From Escherichia phage vB_EcoM_DE16, in sequence record OP595145.1: DNA of 64,000 nt, one strand, 5' to 3'. This document shows positions 1,345-57,140 of this stretch, piece by piece. The translations under genes were made by a program, and so were the position numbers. Position 1 is the first letter of the stretch. Every line of letters starts with the position of its first letter. Below the pieces are notes generated by a model, which was given only the letters and a program-made list of their open reading frames with translations, did not search any database and was not told where the DNA came from.

Positions 1345-2103
1345 AAGGAAACAATTAGCATGGCAATAATTATTGGGGGCGAAATGTTACCGCCACGGGC
1401 GGGAATGTTGAGCACTAAGAAAAGAGATAAACCTTAATCATGGGGGCGTAAATATCCGAGGATTGCCAACGGCGATCCGGCAGGATGTTGAGCAAGTTCT
1501 CTTAAACGTAAATAAAATCAGAAAATTCTTGATTTATTTTGGCTTTTATGTTAATAAACGTTTAAATAATAATCATTCTCATATAAATAATAGTCTGCTT
1601 GTCATGAGCGGGATTAGTTGACAGTGTTCCGTCATATGATGAGGTTGCCAAACCATTGATAAATAAGCGTTTGTGTGATTTATAATCAAGTGGCCCACCT
1701 TGTCGCTATGTTGGCATGAGCCTTGCATAAGTCATTGAATACGAATGATAATTATTCTCATTCGCATGATATTTGGGAATTGTCGCTGCGTGGACCCGAC
1801 GGCCCGAAAATTCGCGTTAAGCACTTCTTACGTATGCGCCATGATTTTTGCCATATCATATTGATTCTATTGGATATTCTTGCCATGATTGCCATGAAAC
1901 AGGGTGTCCCGAAATAATCTCTCCCCGTAGATATTTTGGGTTACTTTTTATACAAGAGTGGGGTGTCAAAAATAATCGGTATATATAGGATAATTGATAG
2001 GAATCCCCTATGATAATTCGATTGTAATTCCCTGAGATTGATCGTATGATGTTGGTGATTGATGATTGCCATGAAAGATGGCTAACGATGAGAGGAGATT
2101 ATC

Positions 2104-19604: not shown

Positions 19605-19673
19605 GCTAGAACCCACCTAAATCGAACAGAGACGCTCTAAAATAGAAAAGGCATCCACTTGGGTGCCTTTGTT

Positions 19674-19946
19674 TTATTCTTCGTTAGATTGCGTCTCAGA
19701 CGCGTTAAATTCGGTTTCAGTACAACTTGCTAGGTAACTTATATTTTGCATCACTACAACTACAGGTGTTTGAAGTTTATCTTCTAGCCCCGCAGCCACT
19801 TGAGCCAAGGCATTATCAATATTTGATTTCCTAACGCCTGTTCCATGTCCTGTTGCCAAGTAAAGATTACCTTCCCCTTTTTGTGTAGCATTGGCAAAGT
19901 AGTAAACGTAATGTGCAAGGTAGTAATCACGGATTTCTTCAGTCAT
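19674..19946 (-). CDS. hypothetical protein (90 aa)
   Basis: ORF with SD TTAGGAGAA upstream on minus strand. Confidence 0.55.
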   Translation of the reverse strand: MTEEIRDYYLAHYVYYFANATQKGEGNLYLATGHGTGVRKSNIDNALAQVAAGLEDKLQTPVVVVMQNISYLASCTETEFNASETQSNEE

Positions 19947-21333: not shown

Positions 21334-21987
21334 CTATACCAGACTTTGTAGGTATTTGTCAAGGGCTTCTTGATCGCCTTGACAAACATAGCAACGGAAG
21401 TCTTGAGCCGAAGGTTGTTTATTTTCATCCCAGTCCCAATAAACATTACCCTTATAACGTGAACCAGGAAACTCAAAAGAGGCTGTATGTGTAATGTATC
21501 CTGGGCCACCAGTGAAATCACAGAATGAGAATTGGGGGTATGCCGCCTTTACTGCCTCAATAAACCAAGCTTTACGATCTAAAGCTTCATTGATGCTATA
21601 CGCATGTCTCTCCATTTCTTCCCACGTTTTCCAGACACTTCTCTCATCAGGAGAAAAGACAAGCCATTCTGGAAGGTATAGAGTGTCATAGTAATCATCA
21701 TATTCGATCTCGGAGGCGCACGAAGCTGACTCCTCCAGTTTTGAGTAATCAAAAGCAGAATATACCCACCAACCATCTTCCAGTAACGCTTTGATAGGGA
21801 CGAAGCCTTTATCAGCATATTGATCGAATTGTTTGACACGGTGGCTTGTGCAGTCTTCAAACTCACATTCTAAACGATATGCACCTTTTCGACGAGCCTC
21901 AAGACCGTGTGTACTGAAAATAACAACACTTCCTTCACCATCATTACGATCTACTTGATAAGCAACCACTGGTTTTGAATTTGACAT
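21334..21987 (-). CDS. hypothetical protein (217 aa)
   Basis: ORF in co-directional block. Confidence 0.55.
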   Translation of the reverse strand: MSNSKPVVAYQVDRNDGEGSVVIFSTHGLEARRKGAYRLECEFEDCTSHRVKQFDQYADKGFVPIKALLEDGWWVYSAFDYSKLEESASCASEIEYDDYYDTLYLPEWLVFSPDERSVWKTWEEMERHAYSINEALDRKAWFIEAVKAAYPQFSFCDFTGGPGYITHTASFEFPGSRYKGNVYWDWDENKQPSAQDFRCYVCQGDQEALDKYLQSLV

Positions 21988-22670
21988 TATTTCTCCTTAT
22001 CTAGAAGATTGTTAGACAAAAACACTGCACGAGCAAAACCACGTGCGGTTAGTGATCTAAGTTGTTTTGTTTTTGCACTAGCTCCACCTAAGCTTTTCCA
22101 ACCCCAGAAGCAGCCTATATGATCTACTGGTTTCTTCACTGGTTGAACAAAACCATTGCCGTGCCAAATACAAGTTTTCTTTGTATACCCATCACGGGTA
22201 GGCATTTTAGGATGAAAGCTTCCTTCCTCTTCAAACAAATACCCACCATACTCATAAGGATCAAAGTAAAAATCGGGTTTACGCCATAAGGTTGAAAGTT
22301 TACCTACTGGGTTCTCAATCATCCAAGGAACATTATATTTGTTACCCAAAGCTTCCACTACACGAATATTAGCTAAAGCTTCATCCAATTCCTCTGTGCT
22401 GCGTTCGTGTTTGCTACCACTACCTGCTAACATAGTGCAAGGTGGAAATCCAAAAATAATATCGGGTTTAGGTATCCCATGATCTTCAGGGTTGAATGTA
22501 GAATCTATCCAGGCATTCACATAGGTTATGTTTGGGTGCTCCATCCTAACCTCGTATTTACCGTGATCCCCTTCATCAGCGTTTACACAAAAACACTTGT
22601 GACCTGCTTCGGCATAACGTAACACCATGATCCCAGATCCGTCAAACATAGACAAAACTGTTTTACTCAT
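21987..22670 (-). CDS. putative DNA cytosine-C5 methyltransferase-like protein
   Basis: motifs MFDGSG (motif I-like), GFPPCT (motif IV PC), ENPVG (motif VI ENV-like); start set at internal Met. Confidence 0.5.
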   Translation of the reverse strand: MSKTVLSMFDGSGIMVLRYAEAGHKCFCVNADEGDHGKYEVRMEHPNITYVNAWIDSTFNPEDHGIPKPDIIFGFPPCTMLAGSGSKHERSTEELDEALANIRVVEALGNKYNVPWMIENPVGKLSTLWRKPDFYFDPYEYGGYLFEEEGSFHPKMPTRDGYTKKTCIWHGNGFVQPVKKPVDHIGCFWGWKSLGGASAKTKQLRSLTARGFARAVFLSNNLLDKEK

Positions 22671-23076
22671 TACCCCTCCATTCAAGACAAGCCATAACTT
22701 TACGCCAATCACTTTCTGTAAGAAAAATCTCGTTTGCTTTCTTCCACAAATCTAAATCGTGAAGGGTTGGAATACGATATGTTAGTTCACAGAATCTATG
22801 CTCTTCTTCTGTAATATAACCAAAATGCAGAGCCACATCGTGAAACCAACACCAACCATGCATCTCTCGAACAACATGGTCATGTTGAGACATTATTTTA
22901 TGCCGTAAACCTAACCAACAAGGAACAGATACTTTAGTAGTCTTTAATCTGTGATCAACAGTATTAGAGTATTCAATAATAGCTGTCAGTTTCAATCGTG
23001 CTTTTTCTAAATCCTCATGGGTCACTTTGAAATAACTTTCTGAAAGATATCCACACATATTAATAACCTCCTTCAA
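22663..23076 (-). CDS. hypothetical protein (137 aa)
   Basis: ORF; weak R-x6-H pattern only. Confidence 0.5.
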   Translation of the reverse strand: MKEVINMCGYLSESYFKVTHEDLEKARLKLTAIIEYSNTVDHRLKTTKVSVPCWLGLRHKIMSQHDHVVREMHGWCWFHDVALHFGYITEEEHRFCELTYRIPTLHDLDLWKKANEIFLTESDWRKVMACLEWRGNE

Positions 23077-29086: not shown

Positions 29087-29596
29087 TTAAACAAAATAAA
29101 ATGGTTGAGAGAGGCCCAAACGATTCTTTGGGTCGTATACATACCAAGCGTATGCTGTCTTATCTGTTCCACCTGCAACAAACGAAGGCCGTTCTGAAAG
29201 GACTATAAGGTTTGTTGGTGGATTCTTTTGATGGAACTCTCGTCGTTTCTTTGACTCCAAGAAGCCCAACCGAAGAAGATAAATACAAACATCCGCCTCT
29301 TTTAAGCTCTTTTCCAAGAACTCCATTGCTAACTTGAATGGAGGATTTGTGATTATAATGTCGGGACGATTTTCCCATTCATGACTAAAATAATCTTTAC
29401 CTTCTTCAAGTTCACAATATTCTGAACCTTCAGGAAAATGGCGATAAATCGCTTCAGCTTCACCTCTACAAGGTTCTGCAAAAACCCAACCTTCTTCCTT
29501 TAGATTTTTGAAATCTATAACACTAAACAAACTATTGATTGCTTTTTGCGGTGTCGGATAATAATCGCTCGTTGGGCGATCATAATCTAATGCCAT
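29087..29596 (-). CDS. putative N6-adenine methyltransferase (NPPF motif)
   Basis: IIITNPPF matches motif IV (D/N-P-P-F/Y) of amino-methyltransferases; 169 aa. Confidence 0.5.
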   Translation of the reverse strand: MALDYDRPTSDYYPTPQKAINSLFSVIDFKNLKEEGWVFAEPCRGEAEAIYRHFPEGSEYCELEEGKDYFSHEWENRPDIIITNPPFKLAMEFLEKSLKEADVCIYLLRLGFLESKKRREFHQKNPPTNLIVLSERPSFVAGGTDKTAYAWYVYDPKNRLGLSQPFYFV

Positions 29597-35292: not shown

Positions 35293-36285
35293 TTAAATCT
35301 TCTCACTCCACCATTGAGGGTTGTTTAAGTACCATTCAATCGTTGAGTAGAGATCTTGTTCAAATGTAGAGTTTGCACTCCAACCCAGTTCAGACTCTAT
35401 TTTAGAAGGATTGATTTCATAACGCAAGTCATGTCCTTTACGATCTTCAACAAAAGTTATCAAGTTGGAAGAAGGGTAGGTTCCTGCTTCTGGATGTACA
35501 GCATCCATGTAGTCACAAACCATATAGATGATCTCCATATTGGTTTTGGGATTACGTGTTCCAACATTATACGTTTGACCTGGTTCTCCACCTGTTGCCA
35601 CTTGAAGAATAGCTCGCGCATGATCCTCAACAAAAAGCCAGTCTCGCACCTGATCGCCTTTACCATACACCGGAATCTCTTTATTCGTCAAGATACTTGT
35701 GATGATTTTTGGGATCAGCTTTTCTGGATGTTGATAAGGTCCAAAGTTATTGGAGCAGTTGGTTATCACAACAGGTAAACCGTAGGTACGGTACCAAGCT
35801 TTCACAAGATGGTCAGATGCTGCCTTAGACGCACTGTACGGGCTTGAAGGAGCATAAGCTGTCTCTTCGGTAAAGGGAACGCCAGAGTCTGCCATATCGC
35901 CGTACACTTCGTCTGTGGAGACGTGTACGAACATCTTCAGTTTATTTTTTGGGAGGAGCCTTGCAGCTTCCAATAAATTGTATGTGCCAATAATATTGGA
36001 GTCGATGAAAACTCGTGGATTCTTGATAGAATTATCCACATGACTCTCTGCCGCTAAGTGAATGATGAAATCGGGATTGCACTCTACTACTAAACTTTTG
36101 ACCTGGGTTTCGTTTGCCAAATCTGTTATGCTTAGTTTAACGTGAGTGATATCGCCTACATTCTCAATATCTGCTGCATAGCCCATCTTATCAACGACAA
36201 AAACTTCGTTATTGGGATCTTGACAAAGAGAGCGCACCACGGCACTCCCAATAAAACCAAGACCACCTGTTACCAGATAGCGCAT
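35293..36285 (-). CDS. rmlB: dTDP-glucose 4,6-dehydratase
   Basis: [10 protein letters not shown] Rossmann motif and YSASK catalytic Y-x3-K. Confidence 0.85.
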
Positions 36286-54994: not shown

Positions 54995-55185
54995 TTCTTT
55001 ACGTACTCCATGATTGGGGTATGGTCGCCAGTAAGCGTAACACGGCTGTAGGACACATCTTGTGTCTTCAGTGTATCAATCCACTCTAAGAAGTGTTCTT
55101 TCGCTTCTGTGTAGTTCTGTGTGCCTTTAACAACGTGTATACCATCTAGAGTTACACGGAATACCATTTGAATAACGTCTTTCAT
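54991..55185 (-). CDS. hypothetical protein (64 aa)
   Basis: ORF in co-directional block. Confidence 0.45.
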   Translation of the reverse strand: MKDVIQMVFRVTLDGIHVVKGTQNYTEAKEHFLEWIDTLKTQDVSYSRVTLTGDHTPIMEYVKK

Positions 55186-55281
55186 TTCTTACCTCCTTTG
55201 TTGTCAAAATAACTTACCAGAACATCGTGAACCACACACATGGCAAAAATCAGAACAATTGTTGTCAGGACTGGATTCTCA

Positions 55282-55605
55282 CTAATTAGTGCTATCATCT
55301 TTAACCACCTCCAATTGCCTTTCGAGTTTGACTTTGTTTGAGAACTGATAATGACACAACTTACATTGCATGTCAACAATCTGATCGTGATTTAACCCTA
55401 CAATTTTAACTTCCTTTGCACCATCCCACTCCAAATACTCAAAGCCATCCAAATGATTACTCTTGTCCAACAGGAATGCTATCTGCTGCCATTCAATCTG
55501 AATGTCATTTAAATGATATGCTGCACAGAAGATATCCTCATAGTAAAAGACGATCATTGTCATTGCTTCGTCCAGCACAACTACCTCTTGTCTTGTAAAT
55601 CTCAT
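55282..55605 (-). CDS. hypothetical protein (107 aa), first gene of minus-strand block
   Basis: ORF adjacent to divergent intergenic region. Confidence 0.5.
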   Translation of the reverse strand: MRFTRQEVVVLDEAMTMIVFYYEDIFCAAYHLNDIQIEWQQIAFLLDKSNHLDGFEYLEWDGAKEVKIVGLNHDQIVDMQCKLCHYQFSNKVKLERQLEVVKDDSTN

Positions 55606-55866
55606 TCTAGCCTCCTAAACGCGTCTCTGACGCACTTTTTATATATAAGATGATAAATCACCTTACCTAGTAAGTGAACTTGCTCTACGAGCCTCTTATG
55701 AAGCTTATGTTATAGGCTATACTATTGCTACCTGTTTAAGCAAGGTTTTTGCACACAGAAAATAATTTTTAATAAAACTCTTGACTTTTGTGTTCGAAGT
55801 ATGCTACCCTAGAAATCTATTAACGAGCGCAGCGAGTTAAGGTTTTAGGTTGTTGATGTAGTATTC

Positions 55867-56058
55867 TGTACTAAAGTACTGTACTCCGTACTAGATTAAT
55901 AATTATTAAATATTAATAATAAATAATTATTAGATCTAACAAACAGGTACAGTGTATCAGAACTGGTACGTACAGATCAACTTCTATCAATTAAAAAATA
56001 AAATAATAAATTATTATAAATAATACTTGATCTATAGATCAGTATGAAGTACAGTACG
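55867..56058. repeat. GTAC-repeat clusters flanking AT-rich palindromic core; inverted copies GTACTGTACT (55877-55886) / AGTACAGTAC (56046-56055)
   Basis: read directly; four GTACT within 25 bp, AT-only tract 55893-55930. Confidence 0.7.
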
Positions 56059-56087
56059 GAACATCTTAACAAGAATGGAGGTGTGCA

Positions 56088-56273
56088 ATGATTAGTGAGA
56101 ATCCGTGCAAATGGCATCATGTGCCTATTAAAGATTGTATGTCTTGTAATCCACGTTCTATTTATAACATTGCATCTTATGACGATGACAATGTGTTAGA
56201 CGATGATGAAGGCTGGGAGGATTTAGATTGGACTGGTTATGAAACCAAAAAGGATAAAATTATTCCTAGTTGA
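56088..56273 (+). CDS. hypothetical acidic protein (61 aa)
   Basis: ATG after GGAGGTG; first plus-strand gene after divergent region. Confidence 0.5.
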   Translation: MISENPCKWHHVPIKDCMSCNPRSIYNIASYDDDNVLDDDEGWEDLDWTGYETKKDKIIPS

Positions 56274-56310
56274 CTTAAGATATCCTTCGTGCTAAACTAG
56301 AAGTGAGGAG

Positions 56311-56562
56311 ATGCCGATCACTCCCCATTTGGGGTTCGAAGGATATATGCAAAATAGTTTTTATTTTAGGTGCCGTGCTTGTAATAGGCATTTGACAAAC
56401 CACTCCAGACGTGATAAAAATGGAGTCATCAAGGAATCAGACCTCTGTTCTATTTGCACAGGTTTGGCTTTTGATGATAGTCCCGAAAGGGTTTATCAGC
56501 ATCAATGTATAACAGACGTTCTCGTGTCAAACTTGGTAGAGGACGAACAACTAACAGATTAG
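56311..56562 (+). CDS. small Cys-rich protein (83 aa)
   Basis: CRACN ... CSICTG motifs. Confidence 0.5.
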   Translation: MPITPHLGFEGYMQNSFYFRCRACNRHLTNHSRRDKNGVIKESDLCSICTGLAFDDSPERVYQHQCITDVLVSNLVEDEQLTD

Positions 56563-56570
56563 GAGGAACA

Positions 56571-56819
56571 ATGTCTCTATTAGAAAAACACGTGTTTGAA
56601 GATGGTAACGGCAATGCAGTTTTTCTTTTCCATCCAGAAAAATACACATCTGAAAACAATGGTACAACTTCTATTGTAATCACTAAAGATGTTAAAGTTA
56701 TTGATTTCTTGGCTCTAATGCGAGAGATGGATCTTGAAATTAATACTTTTAACGCAGAAGCTTTGGTTGTTGCTCTTCTGGAAAAGAAAGATAGTGAAGA
56801 AGTAGCAGAATATGCTTAA
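56571..56819 (+). CDS. hypothetical protein (82 aa)
   Basis: ATG 56571 preceded by TTAGGAGG. Confidence 0.55.
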   Translation: MSLLEKHVFEDGNGNAVFLFHPEKYTSENNGTTSIVITKDVKVIDFLALMREMDLEINTFNAEALVVALLEKKDSEEVAEYA

Positions 56820-56825
56820 ATAACT

Positions 56826-56855
56826 ATTGACAAACGTATCCTTCATATGTTAGGA
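56826..56855 (+). promoter_or_regulatory. promoter AACTATTGACA-N18-TAGGAT with overlapping inverted repeat GTATCCT ... AGGATAC
   Basis: perfect -35; upstream motif recurs at 57415 and 58570. Confidence 0.5.
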
Positions 56856-57065
56856 TACGTTCATCAAGTGTGGTAAGAGGGTCGTTGACTTTTGTTAAGA
56901 TGGGCTTGCACTGCGGTAGTGTTAGAGACTACTTCTTCAGAGGTTAGCTACCAAAGAGGAAAAGGAATAGTCTCGGCTCAAGAACTTTTACGCTGAAAGT
57001 TGGGCTTGGTCTTAGAGAATGTAGCGGTTCTCTACAATCGTCAGCGTCTCTGTTACCACATTTAT

Positions 57066-57140
57066 GGCCCTGTAGCTCAATGGGAGAGCTGTCGGCTCAT
57101 AACCGATAGGTAGCTGGATCGAAACCAGCCAGGGCCACCA
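57066..57140 (+). tRNA. tRNA-Met/Ile2 (anticodon CAT)
   Basis: full cloverleaf: acceptor GGCCCTG/CAGGGCC, loop CTCATAA, encoded CCA; resembles lysidine-type Ile tRNA. Confidence 0.8.

Follow-up and report, generated by a model that had tools for sequence, protein, structure and literature searches.

A predicted four-promoter control region with a lineage-specific GTAC array between divergent gene blocks of a Phapecoctavirus

The 64,000-nucleotide stretch of Escherichia phage vB_EcoM_DE16 analysed here (OP595145.1; the whole stretch is called the window below) contains, at positions 55606–56087, an intergenic gap that separates a leftward from a rightward block of genes. We conclude that this gap is probably a conserved bidirectional control region with four predicted sigma-70 promoters, in which one of two long A/T tracts would act as an UP element and to which a GTAC-rich insertion has been added in one lineage. 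In kind this is an ordinary intergenic control region, of the sort that combines sigma-70 promoters with UP-like tracts, although it is undescribed in the literature that we searched.

The window comes from a phAPEC8-like myovirus of the genus Phapecoctavirus (Stephanstirmvirinae), with a genome of about 150 kb and about 99% identity to ESCO13 and AV125. The gap is bounded by the start codons of a 107-residue minus-strand gene (ATG at 55605) and a 61-residue plus-strand gene (ATG at 56088), which bears out the claim of the original prediction, made from the letters of the window, that the 5′ ends of a minus-strand and a plus-strand block are parted here. Genome-wide counts were made on the complete 149-kb genome of the relative 536P1, and the window lineage was compared with phiWec190, Justusliebigvirus PHB05, Klebsiella phage phi1_175008 and Citrobacter phage Tr1, the promoter scan being run blind.

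Predicted promoters and a shared A/T tract

Promoters were sought with a rough position weight matrix (PWM), and sites were called above the 99.9th percentile of its scores in the window. Four sites in the gap, and no more, pass this cutoff (scores 10.5–12.2), and each has TTGACA/TATAAT-like hexamers 17–18 nt apart. With the sequences that connect them they are:

55650–55678, minus strand: P_L1, predicted sigma-70 promoter; −35 TTCACT (55678–55673), 17-nt spacer, −10 TATCAT (55655–55650); PWM 10.5, consensus scan
55781–55810, plus strand: P_R1, predicted promoter with an extended −10; TTGACT (55781–55786), N15, TGC (55802–55804), TACCCT (55805–55810); PWM 12.2
55932–55947, minus strand: conserved block AGATCTAACAAACAGG, the would-be first transcribed bases of P_L2, with the counterparts GATCTAACAGAC (PHB05, Tr1) and GATCTTAAAGAC (phiWec)
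55951–55980, minus strand: P_L2, predicted promoter; −35 TTGATC (55980–55975), 18-nt spacer, −10 TACACT (55956–55951); PWM 11.5
55989–56025, no strand: A/T tract 2, 37 nt of A and T only, occupying the 46 bp that part the −35 hexamers of the back-to-back P_L2/P_R2 pair
56027–56055, plus strand: P_R2, predicted promoter; TTGATC (56027–56032), 17-nt spacer, −10 TACAGT (56050–56055); PWM 10.5

These sites form two back-to-back pairs, P_L1/P_R1 and P_L2/P_R2, and would thus give each outward operon two tandem promoters, the gap acting as the main bidirectional transcription control region. The same scan finds many further TTGACA promoters with TGn extended −10 elements in the window, oriented with their genes, implying that the phage relies on the host sigma-70 polymerase; we infer that the four sites in the gap would be fired by it as well. 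Conserved motifs resolve into parts of P_L2, ATACTAACAGATCTGCTCTATA being its spacer and −10 and AGATCTAACAGAC its first transcribed bases, and the P_R2 spacer holds the palindrome GATCTATAGATC (56029–56040). The divergent promoter/operator region first proposed for this gap, one half of the original interpretation, is supported, and it can be sharpened to four predicted promoters whose order and spacing are kept in five lineages.

In several lineages a comparable divergent junction is headed by a homologue of the 107-residue gene, with protein identities of 93.5% in phiWec188/190, 58% in the phiWec179 type, 49% in phi1_175008, 42–44% in Justusliebigvirus (PHB05 and alia) and 33% in Tr1. The scan recovers the same order in all four of the other lineages: leftward and rightward promoters, the second followed by the CGAGCGMAGCGAG motif, then another leftward promoter, the A/T run and the last rightward promoter. 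The first rightward promoter is found in the scans of all four relatives as TTGAC(A/T)...TGn-TACCCT, followed about 45 nt on by CGAGCG(C/A)AGCGAG; the TTGAC, TG and TACCCTA of P_R1 and the bases CGAGCG-AGCGAG are invariant in the five lineages, and the P_R1 spacing of 17–18 nt is kept. An alignment of the five intergenic regions brings out short blocks whose conservation greatly exceeds that of the 107-residue protein: the DNA identity of the P_R1 block is 59–84%, compared with 33–58% for the protein outside phiWec188/190. Counterparts of P_L2 immediately to the left of the A/T run read TTGATC-18-TACTAT, TTGTTA-17-TAGTAT, TTGATT-17-TATAGT and TTGTAA-17-TAGTAT, and those of P_R2 read TTGACT-17/18-TAGAGT, TTGACC-17-TACACT and TTGACC-17-TAGTAT (PWM 12.9–13.8). 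The exception is P_L1, which is clear in two relatives (TTGACA-17-TATCAT at its position in phi1_175008, TTGACT-17-TACCAT in Tr1), is represented by a weak, shifted match in PHB05 (8.1) and falls under the cutoff in phiWec190. A Seunavirus homologue of the 61-residue gene gave no comparison, as it does not stand at a divergent junction, and scans of IMG/VR and of metagenomes with a conserved 21-mer returned two more phiWec-type and two more phAPEC8-type loci, with no new lineage.

P_R1 and P_L2 face each other, with predicted starts near 55817 and 55944, about 127 bp apart. The same geometry is predicted in 5/5 lineages, the starts lying roughly 100–150 bp apart in the relatives. Face-to-face promoters form the switches of the temperate coliphages 186 (pR/pL) and P2 (Pe/Pc). 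As in those switches, P_R1 and P_L2 point at each other, and their overlapping transcripts could interfere. This phage differs, however, in that it shows no sign of lysogeny, both transcripts run into long operons that have a second promoter, and there is no known repressor.

Tract 2 was overlooked in the original prediction, yet it is this tract that is conserved across the subfamily, whereas tract 1, described below, is lineage-specific. Every other A/T run is shorter than these two, the next longest being 19 nt in the window and 31 nt in the 536P1 genome, and an independent-base model predicts only about 0.001 runs of at least 37 nt per genome. Relatives have a single long A/T run, equivalent in placement to tract 2, so that a run between the −35 hexamers of P_L2 and P_R2, abutting both, is found in 5/5 lineages; its length in the relatives is 23–47 nt, and the 47-nt run is the longest in 50 kb of Justusliebigvirus alia. 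In P_L2 and P_R2 alike, tract 2 covers positions from about −40 to −60, and it is about as long as two UP elements; at both promoters the position and composition expected of an UP element are seen in the five lineages. There is also a precedent within the genome: the sole other A/T run of at least 25 nt, a 31-nt tract about 400 bp past the right end of the window, lies directly upstream of a TTGACA-17-TAGACT promoter (536P1 segment 5062–5130).

Most likely, then, tract 2 is a shared double UP element, at which the alpha subunits of RNA polymerase would dock. Its position between divergent promoters means that it would also gather negative supercoils, making a second, unwinding role conceivable. 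The likeness to Escherichia coli rrnB P1 and to phage early promoters with UP elements lies in hexamers 17–18 nt apart, the TGn −10 of P_R1 and the placing of a pure A/T tract upstream of P_L2 and P_R2 alike, at about −40 to −60. In contrast to those promoters, here a single 37-nt tract would serve two back-to-back promoters, and most other strong promoters of the phage do without such tracts.

The lineage-specific GTAC insertion

Between P_R1 and P_L2 the window carries three overlapping or adjacent features:

55853–55885, plus strand: direct but diverged copy of the core of P_R2, reading TTGATG-18-TACTGT where P_R2 has TTGATC-17-TACAGT (local alignment against shuffles, z = 4.5, p ~0.0025), below the promoter threshold
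55861–55892, no strand: GTACT array, four copies in the window, phAPEC8-type lineage only
55895–55932, no strand: A/T tract 1, 38 nt of A and T only, palindromic, with two abutting 18-nt arms that are 89% complementary

The original prediction had drawn attention to this segment, and every feature that it described is present. The four GTACT copies in 25 bp are there, starting at 55868, 55876, 55881 and 55888 (55868–55892), and most relatives have a fifth at 55861, where the window reads GTATT, with spacings of 7, 8, 5 and 7 nt. The inverted copies said to lie some 160 bp apart are GTACTGTACT at 55876–55885 and AGTACAGTAC at 56048–56057, with 162 nt between them, and no further copy of AGTACnGTAC occurs in the window or in the complete relative genome. 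A perfect 11-bp palindrome inside the array, AGTACTGTACT (55875–55885), had escaped notice. The A/T palindromic core, finally, is both present and palindromic, its true position being 55895–55932 and not 55893–55930.

What sets the array apart is the scarcity of its core word. GTAC is the most under-represented of the 256 tetranucleotides (second-order Markov observed/expected 0.31), with 65 occurrences in the window against 224 expected and 137 in the complete 536P1 genome against 528 expected. In the gap, 9–10 GTAC fall within 190–200 bp, for which the Poisson probability is 2e-13 in the window (1.5e-8 after correction for all start positions) and 5e-15 in the genome, and this is the sole place in 536P1 with at least four GTAC per 200 bp. 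The clustering of GATC is unremarkable, with four in about 110 bp, while six places in the window reach four per 200 bp. A secondary cluster of five GTAC at window positions 35786–35925 lies inside a sugar-nucleotide epimerase gene of higher G+C (0.42); the region may be recently acquired DNA from which GTAC has been incompletely purged.

The array and tract 1 are present in 9/9 of the Illumina-era phAPEC8-type genomes aligned and in two metagenome contigs, and more than 60 further records match the gap at 94–99%. Both are absent from the four sister lineages (phiWec, PHB05, Klebsiella phi1_175008 and Tr1). Further GTACs in the central block (55947, 55966 and 55970) replace non-GTAC bases of the relatives. 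Array and tract 1 alike lie inside the predicted overlap of the P_R1 and P_L2 transcripts, and tract 1 has no −35 hexamer on either flank. The significant match between the left flank (55853–55885) and the P_R2 core implies that part of the insertion came from a duplication of the P_R2 region; the AGTACGGAGTACAGTAC segment also matches that region in inverted orientation (z = 3.6), and such a duplication accounts for the long imperfect palindrome of the gap (single-strand fold z = −3.1).

What might such an insertion do? Array and tract 1 would lie in the zone where transcription from P_R1 and P_L2 converges, and the array may bind a phage or host protein, tuning the collision of the two and P_R2 itself. 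A GTAC-binding protein could act on P_R2 because AGTACAGTAC overlaps its −10. This role of a putative protein-binding array, modulating the convergent promoters and P_R2, is our preferred reading of the insertion, offered tentatively and as a rather doubtful possibility; that the insertion has an origin-related role, or that it has no function at all, we regard as less likely again, the two about equally.

The avoidance of GTAC is itself a property of the lineage, with observed/expected ratios of 0.26–0.31 here compared with 0.88 in phiWec190 (34 kb), 0.77 in Justusliebigvirus alia (50 kb) and 0.89 in the pooled small loci. Also low in the window lineage are CCGG (0.25), GGCC (0.32) and CTAG (0.33), and phiWec190 has no CTAG at all in 34 kb (54–128 expected), a near-absolute avoidance of a palindrome other than GTAC. 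Two small DNA methyltransferase genes lie on the minus strand of the window, one C5-cytosine-like (21987–22712; FDGSG, PPC and ENP motifs) and one N6-adenine-like (29087–29596; NPPF). A phage methyltransferase as the cause of the purge was rejected as far as it could be tested, both enzymes being found outside the depleted lineage as well: the N6 type in Justusliebigvirus and the Klebsiella phage, the C5 type in six records at 90–95% identity, presumed to be phiWec, and in many unrelated phages. Loss through deamination is argued against by the lack of any excess of its products (GTAT 1.08 and ATAC 1.01 of expectation).

At almost all GTAC sites of the locus one record, BI-EHEC (OL505078.1), departs from every other. 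Over 48 kb (against window 9044–57801), 28/48 of its GTAC sites read ATAC or GTAT, whereas eleven control tetranucleotides are changed at 3–12%. The assembly was made from Oxford Nanopore reads only, with Guppy 4 and Medaka (PMC8686590). The pattern resembles systematic miscalling at a modified motif, and so hints at modification of GTAC in that DNA preparation; it is a lead and not a result. The dw-ec record is free of it, implying that the modification may come from the host and not from the phage.

Stem-loops and other features of the gap

The remaining features concern the leaders of the predicted transcripts and their surroundings:

55610–55616, minus strand: Shine-Dalgarno sequence AGGAGGC of the first leftward gene (ATG at 55605)
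55621–55633, minus strand: stem-loop in the 5′ untranslated region, mRNA GCGUC-AGA-GACGC (GCGTCTCTGACGC), 4 nt upstream of the Shine-Dalgarno sequence, folding with a 5–6-bp stem
55690–55780, no strand: variable spacer ending in a 19-nt A/T run (55759–55777) just upstream of P_R1, with indels in phAPEC8 and EP57
55820–55840, plus strand: stem-loop just after the predicted P_R1 start (about +3 to +23 of the transcript), TTAAC / GAGCGCAGCGA / GTTAA
55837–55851, no strand: variable-number tandem repeat TTAAGGTTT, two copies in the window and three in anhysbys and UP17, which are otherwise near-identical phages
56078–56090, plus strand: Shine-Dalgarno sequence GGAGGTG with the ATG (56088) of the first rightward gene (61 residues)

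About 10 nt separate the GCGTC palindrome from the predicted 5′ end of the P_L1 mRNA. The hairpin is kept with different stem bases in PHB05 (TAGCTC/GAGCTA) and Tr1 (GCTC/GAGC), a compensatory change. It fits a leader stem-loop that would stabilise the mRNA or control its translation. Followed by ACTTTTTATA, it also matches the pattern of an intrinsic terminator on the plus strand, where it would be antisense to the leftward gene and has no transcription unit upstream; on the sense strand no T-run follows the hairpin. The recurrence of this palindrome with one base changed, part of the original prediction, is real in the window, as GCGTCTCAGACGC, although at 19691–19703, one base from where it had been placed. 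This second copy is absent from 536P1, and we therefore give it little weight. It lies between convergent gene blocks, adjoining a bidirectional terminator (19647–19677), at the 3′ end of the same leftward operon.

In the P_R1 leader, CGAGCG(C/A)AGCGAG (55824–55836) is invariant across the subfamily, begins 13–16 nt after the −10 and occurs once per genome. It may form the loop of a 5′ hairpin, for which the folding z-scores are weak and so only suggestive, the outer stem varying between lineages (UUAAC/GUUAA, UUUGCC/GGUAAG and CCCCC/GGGGG). Protein recognition or RNA stabilisation is its likely role, and the protein might be bound either at an operator at about +7 to +19 or at an RNA loop. 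The exact 21-mer TTAACGAGCGCAGCGAGTTAA (55820–55840) is also found in nine non-phage metagenome contigs, as the tip of a longer hairpin with a varying extended stem, either upstream of unrelated genes (lspA, ggt, nifH-like) or tandemly repeated. An Rfam scan of these contigs gave just a spurious miRNA match, and the occurrences may be due to chance or to a repeated bacterial hairpin element.

Around the gap, the leftward operon extends for about 36 kb and holds DNA-metabolism and other non-structural genes, while the rightward block has small genes, then tRNAs (ten genes from 57066 onward) and then later genes. PHROGs and Pfam searches placed the small proteins on both sides of the gap only in families of unknown function. 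In phiWec179 and phiWec190 an extra 70-residue minus-strand gene is annotated between P_L1 and P_R1 (segment 2073–2285), where the window has about 90 nt of variable non-coding sequence. A megablast search with 55000–57000 matched 70 phage records, all of them phAPEC8-like (AV125, ESCO13 and 536P1 among them), of which 62 match at full length with 95–99.4% identity. No annotated promoter or origin, and no gene set within the gap, was found in the roughly 70 GenBank records; the annotations that are present are ribosome-binding sites (ESCO13) and 'hypothetical protein' coding sequences overlapping the gap (four WPEC records and ETEC-TG), and the 'repeat_region' of nepoznato, anhysbys and tuntematon is a 55-nt low-complexity call over the A/T tracts. 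The literature search likewise returned no paper on promoters, origin, transcription or replication for Stephanstirmvirinae. Records named for Campylobacter, Acinetobacter, Pseudomonas, Klebsiella and 'Dompiswa' are among the megablast matches; three of them, Campylobacter B15, Klebsiella ZCKP1 and Dompiswa TSP7_1, share 99% identity with these E. coli phages at the locus, which suggests that their host labels are wrong or that the phages are contaminants.

Alternative explanations and significance

Several observations weigh against the control-region explanation. The matrix is rough, and about 130 window positions reach the 99.9th percentile by construction. Stronger promoters than these four exist in the window, whereas the A/T tracts are unique, so that promoter function alone cannot account for the presence here of the longest A/T runs of the genome; nor does any site in the GTACT array or beside tract 1 exceed the PWM threshold. 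The literature search found neither a mapped transcription start nor a transcriptome paper for any member of Stephanstirmvirinae. As for the array, its spacings (7, 8, 5 and 7 nt) are out of helical phase, the AGTACnGTAC palindromes are 173 bp apart, or about 16.5 turns, which is poor for DNA looping, and the GTAC sites are conserved within the lineage no better than background. No GTAC-binding protein was identified, the flanking proteins matching no annotated family in PHROGs or Pfam.

Could the gap instead be a replication origin? This was the other reading in the original prediction, and a transcription-activated origin would be compatible with working promoters, the A/T tracts serving as its unwinding element: either the divergence of P_L2 and P_R2 would supercoil tract 2 negatively, or P_R1 would form an R-loop in tract 1, and GTACT or GATCT would bind the initiator. 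The DNA is predicted to melt easily. By nearest-neighbour duplex stability, no 40-bp windows in the 149-kb genome are weaker than two at this locus (about 5 standard deviations from the mean), the lowest of all being in tract 1, and the weakest 200-bp and 300-bp windows lie here as well (4.6–5 standard deviations over all these window sizes), as expected of an unwinding element. An origin would also suit the uniqueness of the locus for A/T runs and GTAC density, the conservation across the subfamily of tract 2 between divergent promoters, and the modest enrichment of AGATCT in some lineages (3 copies in about 0.4 kb, where the rate over the genome is 0.4 per kb). T4 oriF/oriG, with MotA-dependent promoters, and the T7 primary origin, with promoters for T7 RNA polymerase, consist of a promoter and then an A/T-rich element, and in the same way the conserved, strong predicted P_R1 reads into the least stable duplex of the genome; those promoters are phage-specific, however, and tract 1 is missing from the sister lineages. 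The 13-mers of E. coli oriC start with GATCT, and oriC and P1 oriR are GATC-rich, Dam-methylation-sensitive origins. Here too GATCT motifs adjoin an A/T tract, and a block shared by phiWec and Tr1, GATCTGCTCTATA, resembles the middle 13-mer of oriC; unlike in those origins, GATC density is ordinary, and individual sites have disappeared from phAPEC8, UP17 and Schickermooser. DnaA boxes, one mismatch being allowed, are at chance, with at most one per locus against 0.8 expected in the window and all relatives, and no integration host factor (IHF) site occurs in the locus of any lineage. As iterons the GTACT repeats would be irregularly spaced, not helically phased and confined to one lineage; the sister lineages lack them while retaining the other elements of the architecture. 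Tract 1 is flanked by convergent promoters, a setting in which positive and not negative supercoiling is expected, and PHROGs and Pfam searches of the flanking proteins found no initiator gene adjoining the locus. Cumulative GC skew, suggested earlier as a check, does have a minimum at the locus in complete 536P1, but there is a second minimum and there are two maxima, all four at gene-strand switches, so that the skew tracks transcription direction and is uninformative on replication. Of the features of an origin, an easily melted element is thus predicted here and host initiator sites are at chance, while the skew does not discriminate; an origin is neither supported nor excluded, and we rate it as a minority possibility, on the whole unlikely. 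A packaging (pac/cos) or terminus site is extremely improbable. The site is unique and repeat-rich, and the 'complete genome' of nieznany (NC_052659.1, positions 1–441) has both of its ends within these A/T tracts; a break in such low-complexity tracts is, however, probably an assembly problem and not a true end. The Schickermooser record has an exact 329-bp direct terminal repeat at both ends (given as 328 bp by Korf et al. 2019, PMC6563267), which maps to window 1491–1819 at 96% identity, about 54 kb from the locus. The physical ends of this phage type therefore lie there, which disfavours a packaging role for the gap.

Other explanations concern parts of the gap. The array and tract 1 might be a functionless, neutral leftover of local duplication or rearrangement of the P_R2 region, as the direct (z = 4.5) and inverted (z = 3.6) matches to P_R2 would allow; four sister lineages do without the array, and GTAC is lost within the lineage at about the background rate (to GTATT in the window, GCAC in phAPEC8, GTAT in anhysbys and by a 13-nt deletion in dw-ec). 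However, the lineage that avoids GTAC most strongly is exactly the one that bears the array, and a neutral ten-copy cluster should erode or be selected against there, yet it persists in the nine aligned genomes and two metagenome contigs; and since the GTACs of the central block replace non-GTAC bases of the relatives, they are repeated gains and not the product of one duplication. A purely neutral remnant is thus hard to reconcile with the data, and we think it unlikely, marginally more so than an origin. It is more unlikely again that the conserved core of the gap is an RNA element, either a short regulatory or attenuated P_R1 RNA or a boxB-like site at which an antitermination or processivity factor would join the long rightward transcript. 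In 5/5 lineages a hairpin with an invariant loop and a stem that varies between genera stands a few nucleotides past the predicted start, with a U-rich stretch after it, and the loop motif is found once per genome. Against this, an Rfam 15 covariance-model scan of 55400–57100 gave no match at E-values up to 1, folding z-scores are 0 to −2.5 with short stems of 5–6 bp, no terminator-like site is called there, and five lineages are too few for covariation statistics. The boxB of lambda nut is a hairpin with a GNRA-like pentaloop; the P_R1 hairpin shares with it a conserved loop, a variable stem and a position shortly downstream of an early promoter, but has an unrelated loop of 11 nt, no boxA partner found in the relatives and no N-like protein identified, and there is one copy per genome. 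More improbable by a little is the idea that in the phAPEC8-type lineage GTAC has become a dedicated signal, such that a GTAC-reading nuclease, modification enzyme or regulator of phage or host has purged the genome and ten copies have been concentrated at one site in the convergent early-promoter zone as a modification- or cleavage-sensing switch or a replication start.

The bidirectional four-promoter control region, with tract 2 as UP element and the GTAC segment as lineage-specific insertion, remains our best explanation. Phapecoctaviruses are widely isolated candidates for phage therapy and biocontrol, and a map of their central control region that marks four predicted promoters, a tract read as a shared UP element and stem-loops at two 5′ ends would be useful for engineering, in the choice of insertion sites, early promoters and reporters. 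That an array of GTAC stands in a genome otherwise purged of this word poses a puzzle of small and clear outline, and the array is the one unusual, lineage-specific addition to an otherwise ordinary element. If GTAC did prove to be a dedicated signal, the array would be the one locus that a GTAC-reading activity could address, nearly all the rest of the genome escaping it. More generally, if the array is functional, it would link genome-wide selection on a short word to a local regulatory array.

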